From the NCBI GenBank assembly GCA_938075565.1, contig CALJGU010000153.1, positions 1,890 to 65,889 on the forward strand: a stretch of 64,000 bases of DNA, in the 5' to 3' direction. This stretch comes from an uncultured Opitutales bacterium (lineage in GTDB: Bacteria > Verrucomicrobiota > Verrucomicrobiia > Opitutales > UBA2995). The notes under the pieces were generated by a model. That model worked only from the letters and a program-made list of their open reading frames with translations. It was not told the DNA's origin and did not search any database. Made by a program: the position numbers and the translations under genes. The number at the start of each line of letters is the position of its first letter. The first letter of the stretch is position 1. Below, one piece after another: positions 7,805 through 54,908 of the stretch.

Positions 7805-10401
7805 CCGAATCCTCAAATGGCCCAGGTTGGAAGTGGGTGACCTTGATGGCTTGGCGTGACAGCCGGCGCAGTCGAGTGAAAATGGTTCTCTTTGTCCTAT
7901 CCATTGTGTTTGGGTTGGCGGCCTTGGTCGCTATTCGTGGATTCCGGACGAATGTAGAAGATGCGATCCAGAGCCAGTCGAAGGAGCTGCTAGGAGCGGA
8001 TGTGGAGTTCAACTCAAGGAGTCCATACTCAGCGGAAATTGAAAGTTACATCGACGGACTGGGTGGTGAACGGACCGATGAGATACGTCTGGCCACGATG
8101 GGGCTCTTCGAATCTAACGGTGGTTCGCGGTTGGTTTCCATGCGGGCATTTGAGGATAGCTTTCCTTATTATGGTGTTCCCGAAACGAGGCCCGAAGTAT
8201 CGATGGAGCAATTTCACGCTGAGCGCTATGTGCTGCTGGAGGAAAGCCTTTATCATCAATTTGAAGTGTCGGTCGGTGATCAAGTTAAGCTAGGCCAAAT
8301 CTATTTCGAGGTGTTGGGAATCATGGATCGGATTCCTGGTGAATCCAAACTAACCGGCTGGGTAGCACCTCGGGTTTACATTTCGAAAAACCATTTAGAG
8401 AGTACGGGGCTGATGCAGTTCGGCAGTCGGGTATCTTATCGCTCTTACCTCAAGTTGGAAAACAGTGATACCATCGATGAACAACTGGAAAACGAGCGCC
8501 GATTCTTTCGTGAAAATCGGGTCGGGGTCGATACGGTGGAAGAAGAGCAGCGGGAATTAATCAATTCTTTTCAGCAGGTTACCGACCTGCTCAACTTGAT
8601 TGGATTTATGGCGCTGATTCTGGGTGGTGTCGGAGTAACCAGCGCCGTTCATGTCTACCTGAGTGGGAAGATGGATACCATTGCCATCCTTCGTTGCCTG
8701 GGGACGAAGTCCTCGCTTGGGATATCCATTTTTCTGGTACAGGTCTCTGGATTGGGGCTGATCGCTTCCTTTGTCGGATCGCTATTCGGCACTGCCATTC
8801 AATTTTTCATTCCAGTCTTTGTTGCTGATTACCTGCCGTTTGAACTAGAGGCTCGGTTCTCAATTCTCGATTTCGGGATCGGCCTGTTTTTTGGTTGGCT
8901 GGTCTGCTTCCTGTTTACCCTCCTGCCTCTGGTTCCTCTGAGAAAAATATCACCATTGCGAGTCCTTCGCACCGGAGTGGAAAATCCTGGTGCGATGAAA
9001 AAGGACCCTTGGGTTTACCTCATCGTTGCGACCTTGGCTGTCGCGCTATTTGGATTTGGCTTCGCGCAAACGGATAACCTTAACGTTAATCTCGGGTTCT
9101 CCGGAGGGCTGCTCGTGGTATTGGGTCTGCTGAGTTTGATTGCCTGGCTGTTTCTCAAAGGGATCAAGAAACTCGTGCCCAAAGGCCTTCCATTTGCTTG
9201 GCGCTATGGTATCGCCAATCTTTACCGACCCAACAATCGCTCGGTTCTCATGCTCGTGGCACTGGGCCTTGGGTTCATAATCGTTCTTTCCCTGTTTCTA
9301 ACCAAGGAAGCGATTCTCAAGCAGATCATTGTCGATCGTGGTGGCAATAGTTCCAACATGATCCTTTTCGATATTCAGCCGCATCAGCTAGCCTATGTTG
9401 AAGCGGTACTTGAGGACAATAGCCTGCCAATTGTCGAAGCGGCTCCGTTGATAAACATGCGGATTTCTGAACTCAACAGCAGACCCGTTCGCGAATTTAT
9501 GCGACGAGGATCTGAACGAGAGGGCGGGGGACGCGACCGAGACCAGCGTGATGAAGATGAAGGGCCTGAAGGCTGGGCCCTACGAAGAGAGTATCGCTCA
9601 ACCTATCGAGATCACCTTACCGAGACCGAGACTTTGATCGAGGGAACGTTCGTTGGGGAAGCCTCCATCGAAGATGAACCTATTCCAGTATCCATTGAAG
9701 AAGGCCTTACCGAAGACCTGGATGTGAGCCTGGGGGATCGCTTGGTATTCGACATCCAGGGCCTGGCTTTGGAAGTCGAGATAGCGAGTATTCGCAAAGT
9801 CGATTGGAACCAGGTGAGGGCGAACTTCTTTTTCGTTTTTCCAAAAGGCGTGTTGGACGATGCGCCTGGTATTTTTATGGTGGCCACACGAACGCCGGAT
9901 GCTGAGACAACCGGAAAAGTCCAAGCAGAACTCATGGAGGTTCATCCGAATGTTTCTTCCATCGATTTGAGGTCCATCCTTTCAACGATTGATGACATAC
10001 TGGGAAAGATTACCTGGGTCGTCCAATTCATGGCCTTGTTTACCATCTTGGCCGGACTGATGGTCATGGCCGGAACCATCATTACCAGTCGTTACCAACG
10101 GATACGTGAAAGTGTCCTACTCCGAACCTTGGGTGCCGGGTCCAAAACGATTAAGGGTATCCTCTTTATCGAATTCGCCGCCGTTGGATTTCTTGCATCC
10201 TTGGTGGGAGGATTTGTTTCTATTGCTGCGACCTGGTCTTTGATGAGGTTCCTCTTCAAGCTTCCATTGGTCGTTGCTTGGGATGCTGTGGGAATTGGAA
10301 TGGTGACCATGATGGTTCTAACCACTGTGACCGGTTTGTTGAATAGCCGCGGGATTACGAAGCAACCGCCGCTGGAAATATTGAGGGATGAGTCAACCTA
10401 G
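7801..10401 (+). CDS. ybbP: ABC transporter permease, YbbP/FtsX-MacB family
   Basis: LMAWRDSRRS, two FtsX-like repeats, LRCLG and LRTLGA motifs, NMILFDIQP; overlaps the ATPase stop codon. Confidence 0.88.
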   Translation: MTESSNGPGWKWVTLMAWRDSRRSRVKMVLFVLSIVFGLAALVAIRGFRTNVEDAIQSQSKELLGADVEFNSRSPYSAEIESYIDGLGGERTDEIRLATMGLFESNGGSRLVSMRAFEDSFPYYGVPETRPEVSMEQFHAERYVLLEESLYHQFEVSVGDQVKLGQIYFEVLGIMDRIPGESKLTGWVAPRVYISKNHLESTGLMQFGSRVSYRSYLKLENSDTIDEQLENERRFFRENRVGVDTVEEEQRELINSFQQVTDLLNLIGFMALILGGVGVTSAVHVYLSGKMDTIAILRCLGTKSSLGISIFLVQVSGLGLIASFVGSLFGTAIQFFIPVFVADYLPFELEARFSILDFGIGLFFGWLVCFLFTLLPLVPLRKISPLRVLRTGVENPGAMKKDPWVYLIVATLAVALFGFGFAQTDNLNVNLGFSGGLLVVLGLLSLIAWLFLKGIKKLVPKGLPFAWRYGIANLYRPNNRSVLMLVALGLGFIIVLSLFLTKEAILKQIIVDRGGNSSNMILFDIQPHQLAYVEAVLEDNSLPIVEAAPLINMRISELNSRPVREFMRRGSEREGGGRDRDQRDEDEGPEGWALRREYRSTYRDHLTETETLIEGTFVGEASIEDEPIPVSIEEGLTEDLDVSLGDRLVFDIQGLALEVEIASIRKVDWNQVRANFFFVFPKGVLDDAPGIFMVATRTPDAETTGKVQAELMEVHPNVSSIDLRSILSTIDDILGKITWVVQFMALFTILAGLMVMAGTIITSRYQRIRESVLLRTLGAGSKTIKGILFIEFAAVGFLASLVGGFVSIAATWSLMRFLFKLPLVVAWDAVGIGMVTMMVLTTVTGLLNSRGITKQPPLEILRDEST

Positions 10402-10789
10402 ACAATATCTGAACGGATGGTTGTGAAGGTTAGGTTAATATTCATGCGTTTAAGAAAGTCTTAGTGGTCGATATCTCAATGGACGTTGTTCACAACCACC
10501 CTTGGGCCGATGTGCCGACTGTTCCTCCTGCATTGCTCGGTCACGCACCGACGTGCGCTCCCTCGTTCCATAGTCGTCAAGACCGACACCTCGACTCCTT
10601 CAGGCATTGTCTAGTACTAGTGGATGTCGCTATCATTCTTCCAGAGAATCGTCCTCTTCCTCCTACTCGTCGTCGTTCTTACAACGGTCTGCTCGGCGAT
10701 CAGACCCTACTTCAATACCTTCTAGCGCGTGTTGACATCGCGGAACTAATATCCTGACACCTGACCACCGACACCTCTTACCCTTCCAA

Positions 10790-11716
10790 CTATTCCTCCA
10801 ACGAAACTTTCACATTAAAGCTTTCCGTTTCACCCGGCTCTACCCAATGGAGTCCCTTCTTATGTTCTGGGCTGTTGGGTGGACCCATCCAGGGTTCCAC
10901 ACAATAGAAGGGGCTATCGTCGAACTCGGTCCACGTAACCACAGTGGCTCCTGGAAGCGGACGAACGGCATCGGAGACGATGACAGTGACATCTTCCTCT
11001 CCGTTTTTCAGTCCAAACTTCACCTTATTATTTTTAAGGCGGAAATGAATGCGGTCCACGAGTTCTGGATCGTCCATGGAAACCTCACCCCCTTTGAAGT
11101 CGGCAGAAACGAGCGAACCATCCGCTGCATGATAGACTGATTTGCAACCGGGTATGAGGGTTCGGTAGTGCCTGCGGTCATACCCTTCCTGCCAGGGTAG
11201 GGTGAAGTAAAAGTGGTGGCCGGCACTCCAGGGGATTTTCTCGCTTCCTAGATTGCTTAAGAGAAACTCAACCTCCAACGAGAGCATAGAAAACTGGTAC
11301 CTTACTAAGAACTCATAGTCGAACGGGTATGCTTGGGCGTCTTCTTCCTTAGGCACAAGCTTCAGAGTGATGGATGAGTCGTCCTGCGCTTGGATTTCGA
11401 AGTGACCATCTTTGGCAAACCCATGCTTTGGCATGGGAAGTATCTCTCCACTGGGAGATTTCCAGTTTTCGATTTTACCTTTATGAAAGGTGCGGGCTGA
11501 AAAGGGGAATAGAATAGGATTCCCTCCTCGAGTAGATGCCAGATTTTGAAAATCGTCTTCTTCCGGCCAATGAATGACTGACCTGGTTTGATTTCCAGAT
11601 AGTTTAAGGGCCCAATCCATTAACCGGGCTCCACGATGGGGTAACATGCGAAATGTGGAGGGTCCCAAATTCCATTTGAATATTTCCTGATCTTGGAGGT
11701 TTTCTCTACTTAACAT
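10790..11716 (-). CDS. Aldose 1-epimerase/galactose mutarotase-like protein
   Basis: RGGNPILFPF, PKHGFA, AGHHFYF, FYCVEPW. Confidence 0.88.
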   Translation of the reverse strand: MLSRENLQDQEIFKWNLGPSTFRMLPHRGARLMDWALKLSGNQTRSVIHWPEEDDFQNLASTRGGNPILFPFSARTFHKGKIENWKSPSGEILPMPKHGFAKDGHFEIQAQDDSSITLKLVPKEEDAQAYPFDYEFLVRYQFSMLSLEVEFLLSNLGSEKIPWSAGHHFYFTLPWQEGYDRRHYRTLIPGCKSVYHAADGSLVSADFKGGEVSMDDPELVDRIHFRLKNNKVKFGLKNGEEDVTVIVSDAVRPLPGATVVTWTEFDDSPFYCVEPWMGPPNSPEHKKGLHWVEPGETESFNVKVSLEE

Positions 11717-24111: not shown

Positions 24112-25497
24112 TTATTCTATGTTATGATTAGACTGCAGTAAGGTATCCATGTTTGCGCGTTCGACAAATTCTTCGATAAACTTGGTCGTCGCTTTACCAT
24201 TTCTAAACACAGGATCCTGCATAATTGCTTTAGAAAACGGAATCGTCGTTTTGATCCCGCTTATAATAAATTCTCCTAAGGCCCGATACATGCGGTCCAT
24301 GGCGATTTCTCGGTTTCTGCCATAGGTAATTAGCTTCCCAATCATGCTATCATAATAGGGAGGGATTTGGTAACCACCGTAGACATGTGAATCCACGCGT
24401 ACGCCGTGCCCTCCGGGGGGATAGTAAAGATCGATCGTTCCTGGGCAGGGCGCAAAGTTTCTCATTGGATCTTCCGCATTGATGCGGCACTCAATCGCAT
24501 GACGATTGATGACGATCTCATCCTGAGTGAAGCGCAGTTTTTGCCCATCCGTGATGCGGATTTGCTCTTTGATCAAATCAGTATCCGTAATCTCTTCAGT
24601 TACCGGGTGCTCAACCTGTATACGGGTGTTCATCTCGATGAAGTAGAAATTTCCATCTTCATCGACTAGGAACTCAATCGTACCGGCATTGGTATATCCT
24701 ACTGACTTGGCCGCTTGGATAGCAGCGTTCCCCATTTTCTCCCGCAATTCGTCTGTGAGGAAGGGTGAAGGTGCTTCTTCGATGAGTTTTTGGTGCCGGC
24801 GTTGTACCGAGCAATCCCTCTCACCAAGGTGAACCACATTGCCGTGGTTGTCGGCAAGGATCTGGAACTCAATATGACGAGGATTGTTGATAAACTTTTC
24901 TAAGTAGACGTCGCCGTCTCCAAAGGCTTTTTCGGCCTCTGCTTTTGCCACTTCAAATTCTTTGTGGAAGGCTGCGCTGTTGTGAGCCACTCGCATTCCT
25001 TTTCCGCCGCCACCTGAAACTGCCTTGATGAGTACGGGGTAACCGATGGATTCGGCCACTTTGACGGCTTCTTCAGTTGTCGGGATGACTCCGTCACTTC
25101 CGGGAACGGTAGGTATGCCTGCTTTCCGGGCCGTTTCGATTGCCAGGGCTTTGTCGCCCATATTGCGGATGATTTCCGAGCTCGGGCCGATAAATTTAAT
25201 TTTGCAGCTTTCACATTGCTCTACGAATTCAGCTTTCTCCGAAAGAAAGCCGTAGCCAGGGTGGATGGCATCCACATCTGAAATCTCAGCTGCGCTGATG
25301 ATGCGATCTGCTTTGAGATAGCTTTCACTGGGTGATGCCGGTCCGATGCAGATAGCTTCGTCGGCCAGCTGGACATGCAGTGACTGCTCATCAGCTTCCG
25401 AATAAACGGCTAGCGTCTTAATACCTAGCTCTCGGCAAGCGCGAACGATGCGAAGAGCAATTTCGCCACGATTGGCGATGAGAATTTTACTGATCAT
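24112..25497 (-). CDS. accC: Acetyl-CoA carboxylase biotin carboxylase
   Basis: [60 protein letters not shown]. Confidence 0.98.
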
Positions 25498-25509
25498 AGA
25501 TGTAATCCC

Positions 25510-25977
25510 TTAGGATTTAACCTTAAACAGTGGCTGACCGTACTCCACGGCGTCTCCGTTTTCTACAAGGATTTCTTTGATCGACCCAGAGAGTTCGGCC
25601 GGGATTTCATTCATGACCTTCATGGCTTCGATGATACAAACCGTGGTGTCCTTGTTTATTGAATCTCCAACGCTTACAAAGGCTGGGCTGTCCGGGGAAG
25701 AAGCTGTGTAAAAGGTGCCAACCATGGGTGACTTGATCACAACGACACCTTTCTCCTCTACTTCGCCTGCCGCAGCCTCAGCTGGTGCCGGAGCTGCTGG
25801 TGGAGGTGTGTAGGCCGGAACAGGAGCTGCATAAGCAGGCATGGCCGCTGCACCGTTGCCCTGGTTTTCATCACTTCGACAGATTCGTAGCTTCAAGTCT
25901 TTTTCCTCAATCTCAAACTCAGTGAGCGAGGACTTTTTCATGATGTCGATGATCTGTTTTATTTGTTTTAAGTCCAA
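25510..25977 (-). CDS. accB: Biotin carboxyl carrier protein
   Basis: [40 protein letters not shown] start. Confidence 0.97.
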
Positions 25978-26172: not shown

Positions 26173-28932
26173 TTATTTTCGAAATTCGAAGTCTTGCAGC
26201 TCTTCCTTGGGCTCTTCTTCGATTGCCTCGGGCTTTGAGTCGAACAGATTTAGTGGGCTGATGGCAAACCTCCACTCTGGTTTCTTCAGGGTTCCCTTTA
26301 GATTCACGGAAGCCATATGGCTGACTGGATCGAACAGGGGCATGATTATATCTGAAACCAAGGGAATATCGGTCTCCCGAAGGAGATACATTTGAACATG
26401 GAAGTCTAAGAGGGAACTGCCGGTATGATAGTCGCCGACTCCTTCCAAGCGTCCGGTTTTCCCTGTCAGTACCAGGTCTGGAAAAGTCATTTTGCCATCG
26501 TCCCAGGCAAAGTAGGACTTTGCTTCATTCAATTGCAGCTTGGTGAAGGGCAATAAACCGGAGAGAGGGCCAAAGAGTGGAATCCGTGCCAGATTCCCTT
26601 CGGTGATTTCTATTTCCCCTTTGGCCATGACTCGATCCAAGCCATAGCCGGCTGGCGATATCCCGTTCACATGGATCTGAAGTTTTCCTTCCAAAGGCTC
26701 TTGGCTCTTCTCGCTACTGGGCTCTGCTTCTTCACCTTCTTCAGTTTTCTTAACCGACGCGATGCGTTGGATCGATTCATCCAGATCGGCGTTTTCGATA
26801 TCAAAATCAAAAATAAGAAAGGACTGTTCTTCCTGTCTCAAAAAGGATGCTTGGCCCGAGCCGCTTCCACCAGCAAATCCAAATTGGACTTCATCCAACA
26901 AAGTGTCGCCTCGTTGGTAACGGCCTTGAACATCCAAGCTGTCGAATGGGAAATCATAGAGAGTCATTCCTTGGTCAGTATCGATTGAGAAGTCGATGTC
27001 CTGCCAATGGGAATCATTCTCGAAGTTGAACTCTCCCTTAACCGAGATGTTTGGGTTTCCATCCCAGGTATAGGGTTCGAGGATTCTTAATCCACTTTCA
27101 CCAAACAAGCTGAAGCTGGGCTCTAACTCGATGTTGGACTCTATATCCACGACGACGTTCTTGAGCTTACTTAAAACAAGCTGTCTTTGAAAACCTCCCG
27201 TAGCACTGCCTTCTGGTCTTTCGAGTTCGAGATCAAGCGCATCGATATAATTGGGCCGTATAAACATTTTCGAGGAAGCCCGATCGAAATGCATGCCTTT
27301 CAAATTGATGTTCTCAGCCTCTGCATATCCAAACAAGGTGAGCTGCTTTTTGAATTTAAATGCATTGCGGAGTGAGAGATCCAACCAGGGTAATTCGCCT
27401 TTGATATCCAGGTAGTCGAAGGTCTTTTTCCACCAATCGCGCCACCAGACATCGATGTCGTGAGGACGAAATCGACCGACCATTGCGAAGTGATAAAACG
27501 GGCTACTAAGATCTTGGCGAAAGCTACACAACAGGTCGTTCCCGTAACCCCCCGCTTCAAGTCGATAGACGTCTGCTTTGGTGCCTGTTAATGTGCCTCG
27601 TGCCTGCGCCCACTTGAACGGCGTCTTGATAATGTCTATATCGCGTGTTTCGACGCGGAATCGTGCGGTGGCCTCATCCAGATTACCGGGATAGTCGAAG
27701 TTGAGGTCCACGTAGAGTGGTTTGTACTGTTTGGACCATCGAAGTTTCCAGAGATGATCAAATTCAGGACGCGCAAATATCTCTTCCAGATTGAGGGATC
27801 CCGTTAAGCTTCCGGCTGCCCACTGTTCTTTCCAGTCTCCTGTGAGATCTGCTTCGAGGCTCCCGCCATAAAGTGAAGTGACCAATCGGCCTTCCGCGGA
27901 ATTTTGACTTAGTAGTTGCCCTTTGAATATGATGTGATCTACCGCGGTGCCCTGGATTTCAATGGGGCCCGTTGTTATGTCCGCCTCAAATGGAAACAAC
28001 GTATCCAGATTGAGGATCGGTTTATCTTTCCAGACAGAAAGAGTTAAGTCTGACGCGCTTAGTTGGTTGATTTTGTCTTCTACCGATGTGGCCTTTACCT
28101 GAATGGGCCCACGCATCTGAATTTCTGGAAATACTTGAATGAGTGATTGTTGACTGGCTTCCCTGATCGTAGGCAGACCCTCGTAGCTAAATGCATCTGC
28201 CATCAGAGTAGCCTCAACGACGAAGGTTTCTTTTCCTTCACTGCTGAGCCGAAAGTTTGCGCGTGGAGAATCCGCTCCCTGGAGGTTCTTTGAATAGTCC
28301 GAAAGAAACCGCGATAGTTGCAAATATTGGATATACAGTTCTGGGCGATCTTCCTTCTTTTCTTGGGGCTGGCTAAGCTTTGCTACGAGCGCGCTTAGAT
28401 CGCCATGTGCGGATAGGTTAAGCGTTTTGAATCGTCCGGTCAGGTAGTTAAGATTCCAAGTGCTCCATTTTCGTGTAAGCTCAAGATTGACGTCGCTGAT
28501 AAGGGTTTCAGTTGCTCCAGATCTTGAGACAACGGGAGGGCTGTAGAAACTGGTGCTACCAAGTCGAAGCAGGTCGAAGGGTGGTTTTCCGATGATAAGC
28601 GCAGCGTAGTTGATATCCAGATACAGTGACCCAATGTCCAAGGCAGGGCCCTCAAGATCGGTAAAGGCGACGCGAGCACTTTTAATGAAAACATTACCTC
28701 TGAAATCCAGGGCAATATTTTCGAAGTCGAGATCCAGCCCTTGTTTCTCGAATTCCGATTGGAGCTTACGTACCAGCTTATCGGGTACCGGGAGTTCCTC
28801 GTAGTATATGCTTAGCCCAAGCGCTGTTAGCAAAAGCATCAGACTAAAAATCAGGGAGATCATTACCAGATTTTGGCAATGAAGGTAACACCTAATCAGG
28901 AAGGAGCGCTGCTTCTTGGCAAGGTAAGACAT
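26173..28932 (-). CDS. AsmA/TamB-like envelope protein
   Basis: N-terminal TM, long beta-rich body, C-terminal G.GDY......LDFHV...VNLKGTLKKPEW typical of the AsmA-like C-terminal region. Confidence 0.7.
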   Translation of the reverse strand: MSYLAKKQRSFLIRCYLHCQNLVMISLIFSLMLLLTALGLSIYYEELPVPDKLVRKLQSEFEKQGLDLDFENIALDFRGNVFIKSARVAFTDLEGPALDIGSLYLDINYAALIIGKPPFDLLRLGSTSFYSPPVVSRSGATETLISDVNLELTRKWSTWNLNYLTGRFKTLNLSAHGDLSALVAKLSQPQEKKEDRPELYIQYLQLSRFLSDYSKNLQGADSPRANFRLSSEGKETFVVEATLMADAFSYEGLPTIREASQQSLIQVFPEIQMRGPIQVKATSVEDKINQLSASDLTLSVWKDKPILNLDTLFPFEADITTGPIEIQGTAVDHIIFKGQLLSQNSAEGRLVTSLYGGSLEADLTGDWKEQWAAGSLTGSLNLEEIFARPEFDHLWKLRWSKQYKPLYVDLNFDYPGNLDEATARFRVETRDIDIIKTPFKWAQARGTLTGTKADVYRLEAGGYGNDLLCSFRQDLSSPFYHFAMVGRFRPHDIDVWWRDWWKKTFDYLDIKGELPWLDLSLRNAFKFKKQLTLFGYAEAENINLKGMHFDRASSKMFIRPNYIDALDLELERPEGSATGGFQRQLVLSKLKNVVVDIESNIELEPSFSLFGESGLRILEPYTWDGNPNISVKGEFNFENDSHWQDIDFSIDTDQGMTLYDFPFDSLDVQGRYQRGDTLLDEVQFGFAGGSGSGQASFLRQEEQSFLIFDFDIENADLDESIQRIASVKKTEEGEEAEPSSEKSQEPLEGKLQIHVNGISPAGYGLDRVMAKGEIEITEGNLARIPLFGPLSGLLPFTKLQLNEAKSYFAWDDGKMTFPDLVLTGKTGRLEGVGDYHTGSSLLDFHVQMYLLRETDIPLVSDIIMPLFDPVSHMASVNLKGTLKKPEWRFAISPLNLFDSKPEAIEEEPKEELQDFEFRK

Positions 28933-34331: not shown

Positions 34332-35327
34332 TTACCTGTGCTTGATGTGAACCTCGCCTGAGTTAAGGGTGGTTATTGTGCCCTCCTCGGTTTTCAGGAT
34401 CAGTGATCCTCGGTTGTCTAGCCCACTGGCTATGCCTTGGAGATTGCCATTGCGGGTTTCGGCTTCGATGAGTTGTCCTTTCAAAATATCAAATTCGGGC
34501 CACATGTCTTCAAAAGTGCTGCGGATGTTGCCAGCCAGGAAGGCCTGATAGCCGTTGTAAATGGCCTCAATCAAGAGAGCCGCGGTTTTATTTAGGTCCT
34601 GTTCCTCTCCACAGAGTTCCCTCAAACTAGTTGCGGAACCCTTCAATTCCTTGGGCCAATCGTGTTGGGTTTGGTTCACATTGAGGCCGATTCCGAAGAC
34701 CAATTCTCTCAATGAATCTGCATCTACGCGGGCTTCGGTAAGCATTCCTCCCAGTTTCTTGCCATCGAAAAACAGATCATTGGGCCATTTGACTCCGACC
34801 ATCATGCCGAGTTTATCCCATAGATGCCGGGCTACATAGACCCCCATCCACAAGGTGAATAGCTGCATTCGATTCGGTTGAACGTAGGGCCGGCTGCCAA
34901 AACTCATATAGAGATTGCTCGATGGTGGGCTGTGCCAGGTTCGTCCCATTCGCCCTCGGCCAAGGGTCTGTTGATTGGATATTACTAGGAAGGGCGCCTC
35001 GTAATCATTGGCCAATAGTCGACTTGCGTGGTCATTGGTGCTGTCGATCGTGGCCAGGAAAAGCAGTTCTGGGCTATCTTCGGACTCTTTCAGGTAAGCT
35101 CGCGTTAATAGAGCATTCAGAGAATCCGGCTTTTTGCTGATCCGGTATCCCTTGCGGCGAATAGCTTCGAATTCAAAGCCTTGGCTTCTCAACTGCTCCA
35201 TACGTCCCCACACGCTGACGCGACTCACCCCCAACTGCTCCGCAAGTGCGTTGCCCGAGACAAAGCCATCTTTCGCTTCCAGGAGCGCTTTCAATATGAT
35301 GAGGGAGTGATCTTCTGAGTGGGACAT
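34332..35327 (-). CDS. birA: Bifunctional biotin ligase/repressor (group II BirA)
   Basis: N-terminal HTH (FVSGNALAEQLGVSRVSVW), IDSTN, QTLGRGRMGR.W.SP, KWPND...GKKLGGMLTE, GIGLNV. Confidence 0.95.
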   Translation of the reverse strand: MSHSEDHSLIILKALLEAKDGFVSGNALAEQLGVSRVSVWGRMEQLRSQGFEFEAIRRKGYRISKKPDSLNALLTRAYLKESEDSPELLFLATIDSTNDHASRLLANDYEAPFLVISNQQTLGRGRMGRTWHSPPSSNLYMSFGSRPYVQPNRMQLFTLWMGVYVARHLWDKLGMMVGVKWPNDLFFDGKKLGGMLTEARVDADSLRELVFGIGLNVNQTQHDWPKELKGSATSLRELCGEEQDLNKTAALLIEAIYNGYQAFLAGNIRSTFEDMWPEFDILKGQLIEAETRNGNLQGIASGLDNRGSLILKTEEGTITTLNSGEVHIKHR

Positions 35328-47153: not shown

Positions 47154-47358
47154 ATGGGTCTTAGGATTGGTCGTTATTAAACAACCGGTTGAAAGATATT
47201 GGGACTCTCAGACGAGCGACTTTTTGAGTCTGGTGAAGAAAAAGGGGGAGAAGTACGACAGGTCAACTGGATTTTGAGAGGCTTTTGCTCCAGTATTTCG
47301 TGAATCAGAGGACAAACAGTTCTGGTTCTACCTGACCATTTCCAAACAATTTTCATGA

Positions 47359-49026
<1,668 letters not shown>

Positions 49027-49833
49027 ATGTTTTTTGATTCCGATAAACTATTGCTCCTTGCGGGCCCCTGCTCCTTGGAATCCTTGGAGGTATGCAGGCC
49101 TGTTGCTCAATGCCTGATCGACATCCAGGGTCAAAATCCGGAATTAAATATCGTTTTCAAAGGGTCTTTCGATAAGGCCAACCGGACTTCTATTGCTGGA
49201 TCGCGCGGCACAGGCCTTGAGTCAGGCTTGGAAATCCTCAGTACCATCAAATCTGAGTTTGGATTACCCGTAGTGACCGATGTGCATGAATCCAATCAAT
49301 TACCCAAACTCGCCGAGGTGGTTGATGTTATTCAGATTCCGGCCTTTTTATGCCGTCAGACCGACCTGTTGCTGGCAGCAGCGAAAACAGGGAAAGTGAT
49401 AAACGTCAAAAAAGGGCAGTTCCTTGCACCGCAAGATATGGCCCATGTGGCAGGCAAATTGCAGGAAGGTGGAGCTTCTGAAATCTGGCTCACCGAACGA
49501 GGATCTACTTTTGGTTATCGGAACCTTGTGGTGGATATGCGTGGTTTTGAGCAAATGAAAGAAACAGGGTATCCTGTAATTTTTGACGCCACCCATAGCG
49601 TACAACTCCCCAGTGGTGGGGACGGAAAGAGTGATGGACAACGAGAATTTGTGCCACCCTTAGCGCGAGCAGCCCTTGCCGCAGGCGCTCAGGGAATATT
49701 TTTAGAGACCCATCCTGACCCAGAAAAAGCAATCTCGGATGGGCCTAATATGGTTCCCCTTTCTGAATTATCTGATTTAGTGATCCAATTATTGAAAATC
49801 TGGAAGGTCATGAAATCCTTGGCTCCCAGCTGA
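49027..49833 (+). CDS. kdsA: KDO8P synthase
   Basis: [58 protein letters not shown]. Confidence 0.97.
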
Positions 49834-49855
49834 AAACCATTTTTATATAAGCACA

Positions 49856-51442
49856 ATGGATACGTTTGTTGCTCAAATCCCAGTCCCGTCTATGGGGGCT
49901 ACCGTCCACGAATTAACGCTCATCGATGTTGAGGTAGAAGATGGCGAATCTGTTCAAAAGGGACAGAAATGCGCCGAATTTGAGAGCGATAAGTCTGCTT
50001 TCGATTTTGAAGCCCCTTGTTCGGGCACGATCAAAAAAATCCTGGTTAGAGCCGGGGATCTCGTGGAAGCGAATTCTCCCTTTATCTGGATTGAAACAGA
50101 CGATAACTCTCAAAAGCACCTTGAAGTATCTGGTGAAGCAGCAAACGGCGTAGATGCAACTCCATCTAAAGAGCCGGTTTCCAAGCCACAACCTGCGGTT
50201 GAAAGTGCTCCGGCAGCTTCCCCCGCCGCCCCTGTTGCGAGGCCTTCTCTTCAAAGTTCTCAACCAGGAGGATTGGTAAAATGGACCCCAAAGGCCTTGC
50301 GAATCATTCGCGATGCTGGATTTGATCCCGCGACAATTACGGATATCCCAGCAACGGGACCCGGAGGTCGGGTTTCTGGAGATGACGTAAAGACTTATTT
50401 AGCTACACAACCAGCTCCCACGCCCGCCGCGGAGGCGACTCCTTCGTCAGGATCAGACCGGGAAACCGTCTGTATTGCTGGAATTGGCTTTGCAGTTCCC
50501 AAAACGGTAAAAACGAATAAGGAGCTCCTGGAGAAGTTTCCTGGAAAAACGGAAGAAGAAATAGTCAAGACGACTGGCATATCTCAACGGCACATTGCCG
50601 GAGAAGGGGAAGGAGTCACCAAATACGCATTGCAAGCCTGTGAAAATGCACTGTCGATGTCCGGAATAGACGTTTCCGATGTGGATGGTATCATCATGGC
50701 CACTATCATTCCTGATCAACCGGTTCCTAGTTCAGCCAGTGCCTTGGCTCAACTGCTTGGAATTCCGGGAGCTTTAGCCTTCGACCTGAATGCGGCTTGT
50801 TCGGGCTGGTTATATGCCTTGGAAACTGGACGTGCATTTATTCGTTCCGGAACTGCCCGAAATCTATTGGTGGTAACAGCGGAATTACTTTCTCGAATCA
50901 CTAACTACGAAGATTATAGCACGGCTTTTCTATTCGGAGATGGTGCCGGTGCTGCTGTGTTGACTGATTCAGAAGAAGGCCATCAGCTTCATCGTTTGGA
51001 ACTTACGGGTGACGCAACCCAGTACGAAGCCATCCAGCGTGCTGGCGGAGGAGCTAAGAATCCGATAGCCAAACCTGGCTGTGATTTGTCCGACTTTTAT
51101 CTTACTATGAATGGAGCGGCTGTATTCAAATACGCAGTAGTCGCTTTTGCGGACATCATAGAAGAGACGCTAAAGCGTGAAAATCTTACCGTGGAGGATG
51201 TTGATTGGGTGGTTCCACACCAGGCCAATGAGCGAATCCTGAAAGCGGTTAGTAAGCGTGTCGGTATACCTTACGAACGTTTTGTTGTTACTATCGGAAA
51301 GTATGCGAATACCTCCGCTGCTTCTGTGTCTATGGCACTAGGGTGGGCCGCAGAAGAAGGAATATTCGAACCTGGAAACAAAATCATTTTTTGTTCGGTA
51401 GGCGCAGGGTTGACCTATGCGGGTGGGCTTCTCGAGTGGTAG
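49856..51442 (+). CDS. fabH: Lipoyl domain + E1/E3-binding domain + 3-oxoacyl-ACP synthase III (FabH) fusion
   Basis: aa1-81 lipoyl domain (EFESDKSA, K46); Ala/Pro linker; aa141-183 PSBD (TGPGGRVSGDDV); aa204-528 KAS III with NAACSG (C315), FGDGAGA, PHQAN (H455), ANTSAAS (N485). Confidence 0.9.
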   Translation: MDTFVAQIPVPSMGATVHELTLIDVEVEDGESVQKGQKCAEFESDKSAFDFEAPCSGTIKKILVRAGDLVEANSPFIWIETDDNSQKHLEVSGEAANGVDATPSKEPVSKPQPAVESAPAASPAAPVARPSLQSSQPGGLVKWTPKALRIIRDAGFDPATITDIPATGPGGRVSGDDVKTYLATQPAPTPAAEATPSSGSDRETVCIAGIGFAVPKTVKTNKELLEKFPGKTEEEIVKTTGISQRHIAGEGEGVTKYALQACENALSMSGIDVSDVDGIIMATIIPDQPVPSSASALAQLLGIPGALAFDLNAACSGWLYALETGRAFIRSGTARNLLVVTAELLSRITNYEDYSTAFLFGDGAGAAVLTDSEEGHQLHRLELTGDATQYEAIQRAGGGAKNPIAKPGCDLSDFYLTMNGAAVFKYAVVAFADIIEETLKRENLTVEDVDWVVPHQANERILKAVSKRVGIPYERFVVTIGKYANTSAASVSMALGWAAEEGIFEPGNKIIFCSVGAGLTYAGGLLEW

Positions 51443-51558
51443 CAGGTGATTAATTACGTGGGTTGTTATTAAAAGCTTTTAAAAATCCGACCCAATTCTG
51501 ATGGATTCTGGATAGGATACCTTATAGCTGTAGCTTCTGCCAGATCCTAGCTTCTGCT

Positions 51559-52620
51559 ATGTCTGTCTTGCTCAACATCCTCATCGAAACTCTGCTCCTG
51601 ATGGCCTTCCTATGGATAGGTAAGTCCGTCATGAAAGCCCAGTTGCACCCCAAAACATTGGTGGTCACTGCGTTAGCAGGCGCTTGTGCAAGTCAGGTCC
51701 TTTTTGTAGGGCTTTATCTTTCTTTTGCTGTGGTCCTCTTTTTTATGTGGAAAATGGCCCGGGTGGATATCGTGCCCGATGGCGCACTGATCGTAATCAT
51801 CGGTAAGGGTGTGTCATTTATCGCAATGATCTGGGTAGTGGGCGCAATTTGGGATCAAACCGGATCAGGCGACCTAGCTGGTTTGGTAGAAGAAATGCCA
51901 ATTTATGAAGACGGAGACGGCATTTCATATTTCGCTGAGGGGGAAAAAGTCTACTACCGGAATGTGGACGAAGAAAAGGTATACGTAGATGCCAACGTGC
52001 TTTTTGGTATATCTGAAGTGGTTTCAGACTCTGCTGAAGGTGATAAAGCTGCATCCGCGGAAGGCAGTGACCTTGCCCCAGATGAACTTGAAGAAATTGC
52101 AGCAGTCCAATCCAATGACCCACTTAATGTGGATTCTGCTCCTGGATTTTCCGAGCCGTATTTATCTGACTCAATGGTCCGAGGTGAACCCGTTCCGTTT
52201 CTACTATTTGTTCCTCAAGGTTGGATGGTAAAAAAGGAAAAAGGTTCTGTAGCACTGCGAATAGATGATCATACTTTCATCCACTGTTTCTCCAATGATG
52301 CCATCTCAAATAATAAGACCTATTTGCGGAATGAAGTAAATCGAGTTTTGTCGCAGTATTCTGGGTACGAAGTGGCTCGACAGGAAATTGTCACTATGGA
52401 CAAAAAGCAGTGGGCACGTGTGCAATTTGTAAACCAAAGAGGCGATCAAGTTCTTATTCTTACTCATGGAGGGAATCGCGGTTCTTACACCGTTGAGCTA
52501 AATGGATCGTTTAAGCAGCTAAGCGCTCAAAAATCTGTTCTGAACCGAGTGATTACTAGCTTCAAGTTTCCGGCAAGTACCTACTTCGTTGCAAAAGTTG
52601 AAGCTGAAGAAGAGCTCTAG
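51559..52620 (+). CDS. Hypothetical membrane protein with acidic linker and C-terminal PsbP/Mog1-like region
   Basis: Three or four N-terminal TMs, acidic middle, C-terminal FLLFVPQGW ... RVITSFKF pattern. Confidence 0.65.
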   Translation: MSVLLNILIETLLLMAFLWIGKSVMKAQLHPKTLVVTALAGACASQVLFVGLYLSFAVVLFFMWKMARVDIVPDGALIVIIGKGVSFIAMIWVVGAIWDQTGSGDLAGLVEEMPIYEDGDGISYFAEGEKVYYRNVDEEKVYVDANVLFGISEVVSDSAEGDKAASAEGSDLAPDELEEIAAVQSNDPLNVDSAPGFSEPYLSDSMVRGEPVPFLLFVPQGWMVKKEKGSVALRIDDHTFIHCFSNDAISNNKTYLRNEVNRVLSQYSGYEVARQEIVTMDKKQWARVQFVNQRGDQVLILTHGGNRGSYTVELNGSFKQLSAQKSVLNRVITSFKFPASTYFVAKVEAEEEL

Positions 52621-53393
52621 TCTCCAATCTGGTTTATAGATTCGGAAAGTACCGATAAAGCGGATACAGCCGCCGTTTCTGATCTTAGCACGTGAGGGCC
52701 TAATGATACAGGTTGAGCTCCACTCTCAATCAACAATTGATATTCATCGGGGGTAAAGTCGCCTTCCGGGCCAATGAATAAAGTCACTGCTCTAGAAAGC
52801 TTCAAATCACTCCAGTTTTTTGCCTTTGATTCCAGGCTGGCAACTACTGCTGTCTCTATTGGGTCTTCTTCTAATAACTGGTCCAACTTTTTTGGATCAC
52901 TCAATATGGGCAGCCAAGGGTTTCCGCTTTGTTTGCAGGCTTCGACTAGCTGCATCTGCCACTTCTTACATTTTGATTCGGCGTTTTTAATTTGAACCTG
53001 AGTCCATTGGGTTGTCAGTGGTTGAATCCTGGCAATCCCTAGCTCGGTTGCTTGTCTCAGAATTGAATCAAACGTTTTCCCCTTAATGAGTGCGATCGCT
53101 AAGGTAATATTTTTGGTGGGCCTATTATAATGAAAAGCTTCTTTTTTAATCAGAACACACCGCCGCTTGTCGGCTTTTTCCAGCCGAGCCTTCCACTCTA
53201 ACCCTGTGCCGTTGAACAGGATTACTTCGTTTCCCTGCTTCGCGCGGTTGGTTCCTACCAGGTGATGTGACTCGAAAGGCGACAGTGTGATCGTGCTTTT
53301 TTCGAGCCCTAAATCTGGAGCATAGCTGCGGAAGTCTGACATGAGCTCCATCTTGCGCACTAATTTTAGAGCTTGTCCAGATTGTGAAACCAA
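52617..53393 (-). CDS. rsmE: 16S rRNA m3U1498 methyltransferase RsmE (paralog 1)
   Basis: ESHHL...R, QATELG, EACKQSG, LFIGPEGDF, SLGPHVLRSETA; start may be 53342. Confidence 0.93.
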   Translation of the reverse strand: MVSQSGQALKLVRKMELMSDFRSYAPDLGLEKSTITLSPFESHHLVGTNRAKQGNEVILFNGTGLEWKARLEKADKRRCVLIKKEAFHYNRPTKNITLAIALIKGKTFDSILRQATELGIARIQPLTTQWTQVQIKNAESKCKKWQMQLVEACKQSGNPWLPILSDPKKLDQLLEEDPIETAVVASLESKAKNWSDLKLSRAVTLFIGPEGDFTPDEYQLLIESGAQPVSLGPHVLRSETAAVSALSVLSESINQIGD

Positions 53394-53637: not shown

Positions 53638-54198
53638 ATGAGAATAACAGGAGGCAAAGCTAAGGGAATTACTCTCAATTCCCCCAAGGGATCAGCAACA
53701 AGGCCGGCAGCTGATGCCATTCGAGAAGCGCTTTATTCTTCCATTGCCGAATTGGTTCCTGGGTGTCGCTTGTTGGATTTGTTTGCCGGAACAGGTGCTT
53801 ATGGGCTCGAAGCTTTGAGCAGAGGTGCCGCCAGGATACGATTTGTGGAATCAGACAGAAAGGCAGTGGCCTCAATCAGAGAAAACCTGCAGCGCGTGAG
53901 AAAGAGTTCAGATCTTGAGACAGCAGAGACAGAGATCTTTCAGGGAAATGTGTTTAAGGTTCGTTCACTTAACACACAGGATTGGGATATTATGATCGCA
54001 GACCCTCCCTATGCAGATATCCCGTCCCTCGAATCAAAACTCTTTGATATGGCTGAGCGATTGCTGGTCCCGGCTGGATTATTAATTTTGGAGCATCCTG
54101 CGAATCTATCTCTTACTTCCGATAACTGGGTGGAGATAAAACGCTTGGGAAAGAAGCGTGGTCGTGGACCGGCGGTTAGTATCTGGCGAAGGTCTTAA
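53638..54198 (+). CDS. rsmD: 16S rRNA m2G966 methyltransferase RsmD
   Basis: MRITGGKAKG, TRP....IREALY, LDLFAGTGAYGLEALSRGA, ADPPY. Confidence 0.95.
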   Translation: MRITGGKAKGITLNSPKGSATRPAADAIREALYSSIAELVPGCRLLDLFAGTGAYGLEALSRGAARIRFVESDRKAVASIRENLQRVRKSSDLETAETEIFQGNVFKVRSLNTQDWDIMIADPPYADIPSLESKLFDMAERLLVPAGLLILEHPANLSLTSDNWVEIKRLGKKRGRGPAVSIWRRS

Positions 54199-54908
54199 GG
54201 CTTTGCTTGGATGCTAAGAATTGAGATTCCGGAGATACAAGCTGTTTCAGTTCGCAAAACTCGTGAACCCAAATCTACCAGGGTAAATCCATGTTTCCTG
54301 AGAAGATCCCTCTCCAGGTTACTCCAACCCCGTTCGCCACCCACGGCTAGAGTTATCGGTTCATTCGATACCTCGATTGCGCCAAGCCGTTTTGTACTTT
54401 CGTAATTGTCCAAAGCCAGACATGTCCCGGCTGGCTTATTCTCCTCAATGGTTTCCGCAAGTTCGTTTCCAAATCGTAGCAGTGGTATCTGAGTACAAAA
54501 TGCTTGTTCGGCACCTCGGACCAATAGCCTCTCAGCCTCACCCGTTGTCCACAGTTTGCTCTTTCTATAGTTCGGCTCACTTTTTTCAGTATCAAAAAAG
54601 TTGATGCTCCTAACCCCCAATGAGGTACATTCCTGCAAAATCCTCCGACAAGTTTGGGGTCTGCAGAAACTAACCCACAAATCAATTGGGAGCAGGGTAG
54701 GGACTTCTGTTTCCCACGCGAAGCTAAGTTGCAGCGATCCTTTGTCTGAGTCTTTCCATCTTGCTTTTCCGCGGGGACCATTTACCAAGCCGACGTCAAA
54801 CTTCTGCCCCGAGTCCATCCTGAGTACTTCAAGGATATGAACCGCGCGCGGATCTGACTTCTTGAGTGGAGCTTCAAGCTCTTCTGAGTTAAACAGAATT
54901 AGGTTCAC
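54195..54908 (-). CDS. rsmE: RsmE-family SPOUT methyltransferase (divergent paralog 2)
   Basis: HILEVLR, TSLGV, GAEQA, AVGGERGW, LGSRVLRTETA. Confidence 0.85.
   Translation of the reverse strand: MNLILFNSEELEAPLKKSDPRAVHILEVLRMDSGQKFDVGLVNGPRGKARWKDSDKGSLQLSFAWETEVPTLLPIDLWVSFCRPQTCRRILQECTSLGVRSINFFDTEKSEPNYRKSKLWTTGEAERLLVRGAEQAFCTQIPLLRFGNELAETIEENKPAGTCLALDNYESTKRLGAIEVSNEPITLAVGGERGWSNLERDLLRKHGFTLVDLGSRVLRTETACISGISILSIQAKP

Follow-up and report, generated by a model that had tools for sequence, protein, structure and literature searches.

What does a condensing enzyme of fatty acid synthesis gain from the lipoyl arm of a 2-oxoacid dehydrogenase? The question is raised by one gene, at positions 49856–51442 (+ strand) of a 64,000-nucleotide stretch of DNA from an uncultured Opitutales bacterium (GenBank assembly GCA_938075565.1, contig CALJGU010000153.1), referred to here as the window. 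In the encoded protein, a lipoyl domain, a linker, a peripheral-subunit-binding domain (PSBD) and a second linker are followed by a FabH-type β-ketoacyl-acyl carrier protein (ACP) synthase III (KAS III). The front half of a 2-oxoacid dehydrogenase is thus joined to the initiating ketosynthase of fatty acid synthesis (FAS) in what is apparently an undescribed variant, both conserved and expressed. An initial annotation, made from this DNA alone, had suggested that an E1 component acylates the lipoyl arm and that the arm feeds the KAS III, bypassing coenzyme A (CoA). The comparative analysis lends support to this interpretation, as each proposed computational check that was run had a favourable outcome, and an unanticipated loss of the residues that contact the CoA nucleotide fits it. 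With a probability of roughly 60%, the gene encodes the partner that accepts and condenses the acyl group in a two-protein module for CoA-independent initiation of type II FAS, in which KAS III would be primed directly from lipoamide.

The open reading frame is uninterrupted (528 residues plus stop), and its modules, as first described, are borne out by Pfam, NCBIfam and PDB searches. The lipoyl domain (residues 4–81, 49865–50098, + strand as for all features of the gene) matches Biotin_lipoyl over residues 7–76 (E = 2.5e-15), and its β-strands fall at residues 4–81 in an AlphaFold2 model. The predicted lipoylation site is K46 of an ESDK motif, and an AAG codon does stand at 49991–49993. Nine residues past this lysine lies C55 (50018–50020), a conserved, family-specific cysteine in a P-C-x-G motif. 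Linker 1 (residues ~90–141, 50123–50278) is flexible and rich in Ala, Pro and Ser; it is variable in alignment, with a predicted local distance difference test score (pLDDT) of ~30 over residues 96–139. The PSBD (residues 142–184, 50279–50407) is modeled with helices at 145–153 and 175–184, and its match to E3_binding is marginal in the window protein (residues 142–178, 24.1 bits against a cutoff of 23.7) and scores 26–35 bits in relatives. Linker 2 (residues 185–203, 50408–50464) is again flexible and variable, with pLDDT below 50 at residues 188–202. The remainder (residues 204–528, 50465–51439) is the KAS III condensing domain, matched by ACP_syn_III (residues 309–382, 94.4 bits), ACP_syn_III_C (residues 439–528, 102.3 bits) and the fabH model TIGR00747 (residues 205–528, 310.3 bits, cutoff 292.1); the protein also scores 334 bits with NF006829 (cutoff 249). 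The closest PDB structures to the C-terminal part are FabH enzymes (~3e-61). Residues 5–199 match the lipoyl and PSBD chains of E2p in the PDB (3e-18) and align to the lipoyl-to-PSBD part of several NCBIfam E2 models. The 2-oxoacid dehydrogenase core, PF00198, has no match in the fusion by Pfam or NCBIfam, as residues 204–528 are entirely KAS III. The catalytic triad had been placed correctly at C315 (50798–50800), H455 (51218–51220) and N485 (51308–51310), which align with C112, H244 and N274 of Escherichia coli FabH (EcFabH).

The AlphaFold2 model as a whole (pLDDT 69.6, predicted template-modeling score 0.47) contains three folded modules with disordered linkers at 96–139 and 188–202. It suggests a beads-on-a-string design without fixed packing between domains, and disordered linkers of this kind fit a swinging arm. 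A biotinyl rather than a lipoyl identity for the N-terminal domain was considered and appears unlikely, given the ESDK or ESAK motif, the likeness to E2 lipoyl domains and the pairing with a PSBD and an E1.

The architecture is not peculiar to this contig. The search across genomes found it to be recurrent in four phyla, and among the matches listed from 5.8 billion proteins, at least 120 clusters, 58–100% identical, share it. Those with names include Opitutaceae, Termitidicoccus and Nibricoccus, and some cluster members lie on contigs of several Mb. Across 23 aligned fusions, the lipoyl lysine (23/23), the PSBD core (W143-T-P ... T167-G-P-G-G-R-x-S-G-D-D177), the triad and R460, the equivalent of EcFabH R249, are invariant, and both Ala/Pro-rich linkers are free to vary in length and sequence. 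The lipoyl lysine is likewise kept in all 42 lipoyl modules examined from four phyla. In canonical E2 lipoyl domains, the position of C55 is occupied by F, V or E. Here the signature K-[SA]-x-F-[DE]-[FY]-E-[AS]-P-C-x-G carries its cysteine in 32/32 fused proteins of four phyla and in 6/10 split lipoyl modules, and C55 could serve as a relay or redox thiol.

At least 20 marine or seawater metagenomes contain the window sequence, and a single 11,187-bp metagenome contig runs across 47300–52700 with zero joints or indels. A single 1,646-nt metatranscriptome contig covers 49814–51436, that is, the fusion reading frame, from which it follows that the gene is expressed in situ in seawater. This RNA contig starts at 49814 with adapter sequence before it, and contig depth in both metatranscriptomes is zero over 49472–49652, inside the upstream kdsA gene. 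There is a hint in this of a 5′ end or promoter belonging to the fusion gene itself in the 3′ end of kdsA, contig depth being a poor measure; a promoter and terminator scan gave fewer matches than shuffled sequences.

A scan of one genome per species in GTDB, followed by dissection of the matches, separates three forms of the system. Fused lipoyl-PSBD-KAS III proteins occur in many Opitutales and in one Spirochaetales metagenome-assembled genome (MAG; locus L030). Proteins of ~437 residues with a lipoyl domain (motif ESAK or DSAK) and a KAS III but no PSBD occur in Thermoguttaceae, Planctomycetaceae and Fibrobacterota/Chitinivibrionales. In ten Opitutaceae MAGs the protein is split: a lipoyl-linker-PSBD protein of ~155 residues ends just past the PSBD, and a separate KAS III gene (~332 residues) follows 10–40 nt downstream, the pair usually standing after kdsA (loci L013, L014, L018, L022, L023, L024 and L026–L029, around locus position 10001–11500). 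Linker 2 is the site of fission. A neighbour-joining tree places all lipoyl-associated KAS III domains in a single clade, separate from 40 canonical stand-alone FabHs that the same scan had recovered. Within this clade the split forms lie among the fused Opitutales as a subclade and are thus probably the product of secondary fission. That lipoyl-PSBD and KAS III genes remain paired after separation indicates that selection maintains the pairing, which is no mere by-product of fusion. Across this KAS III clade, then, it is the lipoyl carrier that stays constant as a partner, and the PSBD and the covalent fusion do not; both are dispensable, the PSBD being absent from the Planctomycetota and Fibrobacterota forms, which qualifies the role that the initial annotation had given it. 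The split loci also offer a ready-made trans system for experiments. One Lacunisphaera sp. locus (L025, 9869–10996) encodes a KAS III of the lipoyl clade, 68% identical to the KAS domain of the window and with the CoA contacts lost, that lacks an upstream lipoyl-PSBD gene and whose carrier protein presumably comes from another locus of that genome.

A clue to function lies in the CoA-nucleotide site. In EcFabH, Thr28 forms a hydrogen bond with the adenine of CoA, Trp32 and Arg151 sandwich that adenine, and Arg36 holds the phosphopantetheine (PMC4606726). These positions were compared between the 40 canonical FabHs and 43 lipoyl-associated domains (18 fused Opitutales, 12 split or related and 13 from distant phyla). 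T28, present in 40/40 canonical enzymes, is R, K or M, or I or V, in the lipoyl-associated domains; W32 (40/40 canonical) is E in Opitutales, with Q once, and Y in all 13 distant forms; R36 (38/40 canonical, H in the other 2) is L, I, V or T in all 43. None of these three residues is kept in any of the 43 domains. R151 (40/40 canonical) is lost in Opitutales, where it is H, Y, F or Q, and is kept in 8 of the 13 distant forms. The window protein has K231, E235 and T239 (together 50546–50572) and Y354 at the four positions. The catalytic apparatus presents the opposite picture: the equivalents of C112, H244 and N274 never vary among the 43 lipoyl-associated and 40 canonical domains, no group departs from the tunnel residues G209, F213, A246, N247 and I250 or from the ACP-docking R249 (window R460), and the basic patch (K214, K256 and K257 equivalents) remains basic in Opitutales. 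F87, which lines the primer pocket, is replaced by Val in Opitutales (window V290) and by Met or Leu in distant forms, and a smaller residue here could fit a roomier pocket. The residue pattern predicts that passage of a pantetheine-like arm, malonyl-ACP binding and condensation are kept and that the canonical grip on the CoA nucleotide has specifically been given up. The surface vacated by the nucleotide would be the obvious docking place for the lipoyl domain.

This pattern also bears on how the protein should be classified. With FabH it shares the ACP_syn_III domains, a score above the fabH cutoff, the triad and the ACP-docking arginine, and lacks the acyl-CoA primer site; with E2 it shares a lipoyl domain with its lysine, a PSBD and a genomic partnership with E1, and lacks the PF00198 core. 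Judged by these sequence features, the fusion resembles KAS III and E2 in part and is a full member of neither.

If the arm is to be charged, an E1 is required, and carriers had been expected to encode an E1α/β without a cognate E2. When neighbouring reading frames were clustered at 13 loci from Planctomycetota, Fibrobacterota and Spirochaetales, exactly one gene besides lipoyl-KAS III was common to all 13: a gene of 650–725 codons, directly upstream on the same strand, that encodes a fused E1α-E1β (E1_dh, Transket_pyr and Transketolase_C in Pfam). In 6 of the 13 the two genes share a 4-nt stop/start overlap. The same clustering across these three phyla found no E2 or E3 gene conserved near the pair. 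The association was also seen in reverse, as a lipoyl-KAS III gene comes next after each of two E1αβ genes located on long contigs. At the Fibrobacterota loci L038–L041, L044, L045 and L090, the pair is regularly followed by RadC, a PaaK-like AMP-binding enzyme and a family 2 glycosyltransferase, and at three Fibrobacterota loci a TonB-dependent receptor is also found downstream; the PaaK-like acyl-activating enzyme might supply or salvage short acids.

In Opitutales the E1αβ is an orphan encoded elsewhere. A first profile search for it returned only Planctomycetota and Fibrobacterota among its best 120 matches. In a profile search of 1.84 billion representative proteins clustered at 50%, a lineage from Pelagicoccus (Opitutales) was third-closest to the operonic E1αβ, after the main Planctomycetota/Fibrobacterota group and a Spirochaetia lineage. 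The gene is widespread in the order: orthologues with 57–90% identity to that of Pelagicoccus were recovered from Opitutaceae, Puniceicoccaceae, Lacunisphaera, Didemnitutus and strain DG1235. In the MAG GCA_028284235.1, the E1αβ gene (JANQSC010000027.1, 2801–4867) lies ~16 kb from the fusion (locus L011) on the same 71-kb contig. In the five Opitutales contexts compared (L085, L087, L088, L092 and L094), no E2 or E3 gene is adjacent, and the setting is of the envelope or lipopolysaccharide (LPS) type: rpiB, then E1αβ, a KdsC-like Hydrolase_3 protein, a small protein, an LptA-like protein, an LptB-like ATP-binding cassette (ABC) ATPase and HprK. A sucA-sucB-lpd operon on the Lacunisphaera contig (L088) indicates that an E3 and another lipoylated E2 exist in the family.

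The relationships of the E1 point toward branched-chain substrates. Its α half is nearest to the α subunit of branched-chain 2-oxoacid dehydrogenase (BCKDH), at 5.5e-40 in L030 compared with ~1e-24 for the α subunit of pyruvate dehydrogenase (PDH), and at 1e-28 compared with 4.5e-23 in Pelagicoccus; the β half of the Opitutales protein is nearest to the Thermus branched-chain enzyme. Fatty acids of cultured Opitutia point the same way, with iso-C15:0 reaching 48.6% in Lacunisphaera beside anteiso-C15:0, iso-C14:0 and iso-C13:0 3-OH (PMC5303756), and iso-C14:0 making up 10–23% in Coraliomargarita (PMC10288369). Because the E1 α half is nearest to BCKDH α and Opitutia are rich in iso/anteiso chains, branched-chain 2-oxoacids are the likeliest substrates, possibly along with pyruvate or 2-oxobutyrate, and the products would be the iso/anteiso fatty acids typical of Opitutia. 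Branched-chain specificity itself is only suggested.

A catalytic cycle can be proposed from these elements. The fused E1αβ, dependent on thiamine diphosphate (ThDP) and supplied from elsewhere in the genome in Opitutales or from the gene directly upstream in the three other phyla, would decarboxylate a 2-oxoacid and reductively acylate lipoyl-K46. The flexible linkers would allow the acyl-dihydrolipoyl arm to enter the pantetheine tunnel of KAS III, with the lipoyl domain docked where the CoA nucleotide would usually sit, and the acyl group would pass to Cys315 by thioester exchange. Malonyl-ACP, docked at R460, would then be decarboxylated with the help of His455 and Asn485, and condensation would yield a 3-oxoacyl-ACP primer. 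The dihydrolipoyl arm would be reoxidised by an E3 (Lpd) shared with other complexes, and the PSBD, where present, may recruit E1αβ, E3 or both. We infer the lipoylation of K46, the direct transfer from lipoyl to Cys, the E3 step, the partner of the PSBD and the identity of the substrate from comparative support, namely the architecture and its conservation, the expression of the gene, the linkage to E1αβ and the pattern of residues lost and retained.

Several observations weigh against this proposal. The distant-phylum forms have Tyr at the W32 position and, in 8/13, retain R151, such that some nucleotide stacking could persist in them; the loss of contacts, moreover, indicates a departure from the known mode of CoA binding and does not establish an inability to use acyl-CoA. 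When four E1αβ queries were used in tblastn, no E1 was found in the 64-kb window or within ±10 kb at ~30 Opitutales loci, and the E1αβ of the window's own organism is deduced from its relatives. The E1αβ falls below every NCBIfam equivalog cutoff. A conventional E2 of the BCKDH kind, or a further, canonical FabH, may be encoded elsewhere in carrier genomes, and the single-chain AlphaFold2 model, with its low template-modeling score, docks the lipoyl domain nowhere on the KAS domain.

Among the alternatives, the one that survives best, though unlikely, is that the KAS III-like domain stands in, as a non-homologous substitute, for the E2 core. The lipoyl arm would then deliver its acyl group through Cys315 to holo-ACP or CoA without any condensation, making the system an unusual 2-oxoacid dehydrogenase that produces acyl-ACP or acyl-CoA. 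An E1, a lipoyl domain and an acyl-transferring enzyme are indeed the minimal logic of a 2-oxoacid dehydrogenase complex, no E2 core gene accompanies the E1αβ, and FabH enzymes have an acyl-CoA:ACP transacylase side activity. Delivery from lipoyl to ACP also has a precedent in QncN/L/M (PMC6335953). However, all 43 domains retain His455, Asn485 and the ACP-docking Arg, the domain scores above a curated FabH cutoff, and the lost nucleotide contacts speak against CoA as the acceptor. The acyl-ACP variant, for its part, would still amount to CoA-independent priming.

Rather less probable is a purely tethering role, in which KAS III still uses acyl-CoA, the lipoyl-PSBD segment anchors it to a conventional E1/E2/E3 complex of the BCKDH or PDH type for channelling by proximity, and the lipoyl group is one more ordinary arm, as in the eukaryotic E3-binding protein. 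The usual task of a PSBD is to attach E1 or E3 to a complex, the fusion has no E1 beside it in Opitutales, and conventional E2/E3 genes occur in at least one Opitutaceae genome. On the other hand, the nucleotide contacts are lost in all 43 domains, most distant-phylum forms lack the PSBD and yet keep the lipoyl domain, the operon in those phyla consists of E1αβ and lipoyl-KAS III with no E2, and the Opitutales E1αβ is an orphan without an adjacent E2.

Comparably doubtful is the idea of a dedicated role, in which the system primes a specialised product (a polyketide-like lipid, for instance, or the branched 3-hydroxy chains of lipid A) and a separate canonical FabH serves bulk fatty acid synthesis. 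KAS III homologues often serve secondary metabolism, and both Opitutales partners lie in clusters of the 3-deoxy-D-manno-octulosonate (KDO) or LPS type, the fusion after pyrG-kdsA and the E1αβ before the KdsC-, LptA- and LptB-like genes; lpxB, in addition, is near the fusion in Termitidicoccus, and the iso-C13:0 3-OH of Lacunisphaera (PMC5303756) would be a fitting product. Against this stand the order-wide distribution, the housekeeping context, the score above the FabH cutoff and the absence of conserved LPS neighbours of the pair in the other three phyla. Lipid A acyl chains, furthermore, come from the same FAS II pool anyway, and a second KAS III was seen in none of the loci, which are 20-kb windows only. 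Finally, a chimeric assembly or annotation artefact joining an E2 N-terminus to fabH, which the initial annotation had raised against its own proposal, can practically be dismissed in the face of at least 120 clusters, GTDB genomes in four phyla, and DNA and RNA contigs that span the junction.

With direct lipoyl priming retained as the preferred reading, the system can be set beside those already known. Like the E2 subunits of BCKDH and PDH, the fusion has an N-terminal lipoyl domain, an Ala/Pro linker, a PSBD and a second linker, in that order, and a genomic E1αβ partner. The term "E2-like scaffold" therefore holds for the order of lipoyl domain and PSBD, but not beyond it: where E2 has the 2-oxoacid_dh catalytic and oligomerisation core, the fusion has a KAS III domain of the thiolase fold. 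E2 cores are 24- or 60-mers and KAS III/FabH enzymes are dimers, and the fusion is likely dimeric. Its expected acceptor is the enzyme's own Cys and then malonyl-ACP, not CoA, and unlike E2 it has relatives without a PSBD and relatives divided over two proteins. With the branched-chain FabHs of Bacillus, Staphylococcus and Listeria, which use acyl-CoA derived from BCKDH, the fusion shares the triad, the pantetheine tunnel, the Arg249 equivalent and a presumed role in branched-chain priming downstream of a BCKDH-type E1; it differs in lacking T28, W32 and R36, in being joined covalently or operonically to a lipoyl carrier, and in belonging to a separate clade.

The nearest documented functional precedent, by analogy, may be QncN/QncL/QncM, in which an E1-like ThDP enzyme, a lipoyl domain and an E2 acyltransferase together charge an ACP with a C2 unit for non-ribosomal peptide assembly, as SclQ1-4 do likewise (PMC6335953). 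Both systems, on the present proposal, put an E1-type enzyme and a lipoyl arm to biosynthetic use and direct the acyl group to a carrier-protein pathway and not to CoA. The Qnc system, however, has a conventional E2 acyltransferase, carries out a transketolase-like reaction on ketose phosphates and loads ACP, whereas the arm of the fusion is joined to a condensing enzyme in a setting of primary lipid metabolism. The fusion is not of the QncL type, as it has no E2 acyltransferase domain and no dedicated ACP gene is conserved nearby at the loci examined. Lipoyl modules without E2 catalysis, with or without a PSBD, also have parallels, the split ~155-residue Opitutaceae protein being a free-standing lipoyl-PSBD. 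The E3-binding protein (protein X) of eukaryotic PDH is integrated in the E2 scaffold by an inactive E2-like core, and GcvH serves aminomethyl transfer; neither feeds a ketosynthase. Alternative routes of FAS initiation reportedly include malonyl-ACP decarboxylase and, in Pseudomonas putida, FabB, both of which are said to dispense with FabH. The fusion, in contrast, keeps a FabH-type enzyme and would change the primer donor. Candidatus Organicella, a verrucomicrobial endosymbiont described as having PDH for FAS and missing FabH, was considered as an example and ruled out, having an ordinary PdhC E2 and no KAS III; the Organicella paper does describe an extra E1 α/β pair inside an LPS gene cluster. 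The statement that no characterised enzyme of this architecture was known held up in a full-text literature search, which found no description of a lipoyl-KAS III protein or an E1αβ/lipoyl-KAS III operon; publications beyond the searched collection are possible. In databases the fusions are named simply "beta-ketoacyl-ACP synthase 3", and their E1 partners "transketolase", "thiamine pyrophosphate-dependent enzyme" or "2-oxoisovalerate dehydrogenase E1".

The surroundings of the gene in the window are of a housekeeping kind. Upstream on the same strand are pyrG (47374–49026, +) and kdsA (49027–49833, +), identified by Pfam and conserved as Opitutales neighbours (pyrG in 12/27 loci and kdsA in 10/27). 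The order pfkB, pyrG-kdsA-fusion, rsmE is repeated in L004, and an rsmE-like gene lies downstream of the fusion in 12 Opitutales loci. Pfam identified no E1, E3, lipoate-ligase or further fab genes among the 41 reading frames of the window. The window does include accC (biotin carboxylase) with an adjacent 155-residue biotin carboxyl carrier protein, AccB (24112–25977, −), and a BirA-type biotin protein ligase with a helix-turn-helix domain (34332–35327, −); AccB provides a genuine biotinyl domain in the same window, usable for comparison. Directly downstream of the fusion is a reading frame of 353 residues (51559–52620, +) with no Pfam match and, by eye, a hydrophobic-rich N-terminal stretch; it is not conserved beside the fusion in the other Opitutales loci compared. 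Two RsmE-like (Methyltrans_RNA) paralogues (52617–53393, −, and 54195–54908, −) then flank an RsmD-like (Cons_hypoth95) methyltransferase (53638–54198, +). Another reading frame without a Pfam match, of 919 residues (26173–28932, −), stands beside DUF4340 and ABC-transporter-auxiliary genes.

In its broadest form the proposal is that lipoamide replaces CoA as the primer donor of FAS: an orphan E1αβ and a lipoyl-(PSBD)-KAS III would form a minimal "dehydrogenase-ketosynthase" that turns branched-chain 2-oxoacids into 3-oxoacyl-ACP without acyl-CoA, and that serves as the principal and perhaps sole initiator of type II FAS in Opitutales, many Planctomycetota, Fibrobacterota and some Spirochaetota. 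The chances of this wider claim are about even. If true, it would constitute a new route to start bacterial fatty acid synthesis and a new task for the lipoyl arm, which would hand its acyl group to the Cys of a ketosynthase rather than to CoA via an E2 core; this would be the first known case of such an arm supplying a condensing enzyme. A widespread error in the annotation of both the fusions and their E1 partners would be corrected, and engineering would gain a compact two-protein module for making branched- or odd-chain fatty acids straight from 2-oxoacids. FabH inhibitors directed at the CoA site, in turn, may not apply to all FabH-type enzymes. For the organisms themselves, it would mean that groups abundant in the environment, namely marine and freshwater Opitutales, Planctomycetota and Fibrobacterota, commit 2-oxoacids derived from amino acids to iso/anteiso lipids, bypassing the acyl-CoA pool.

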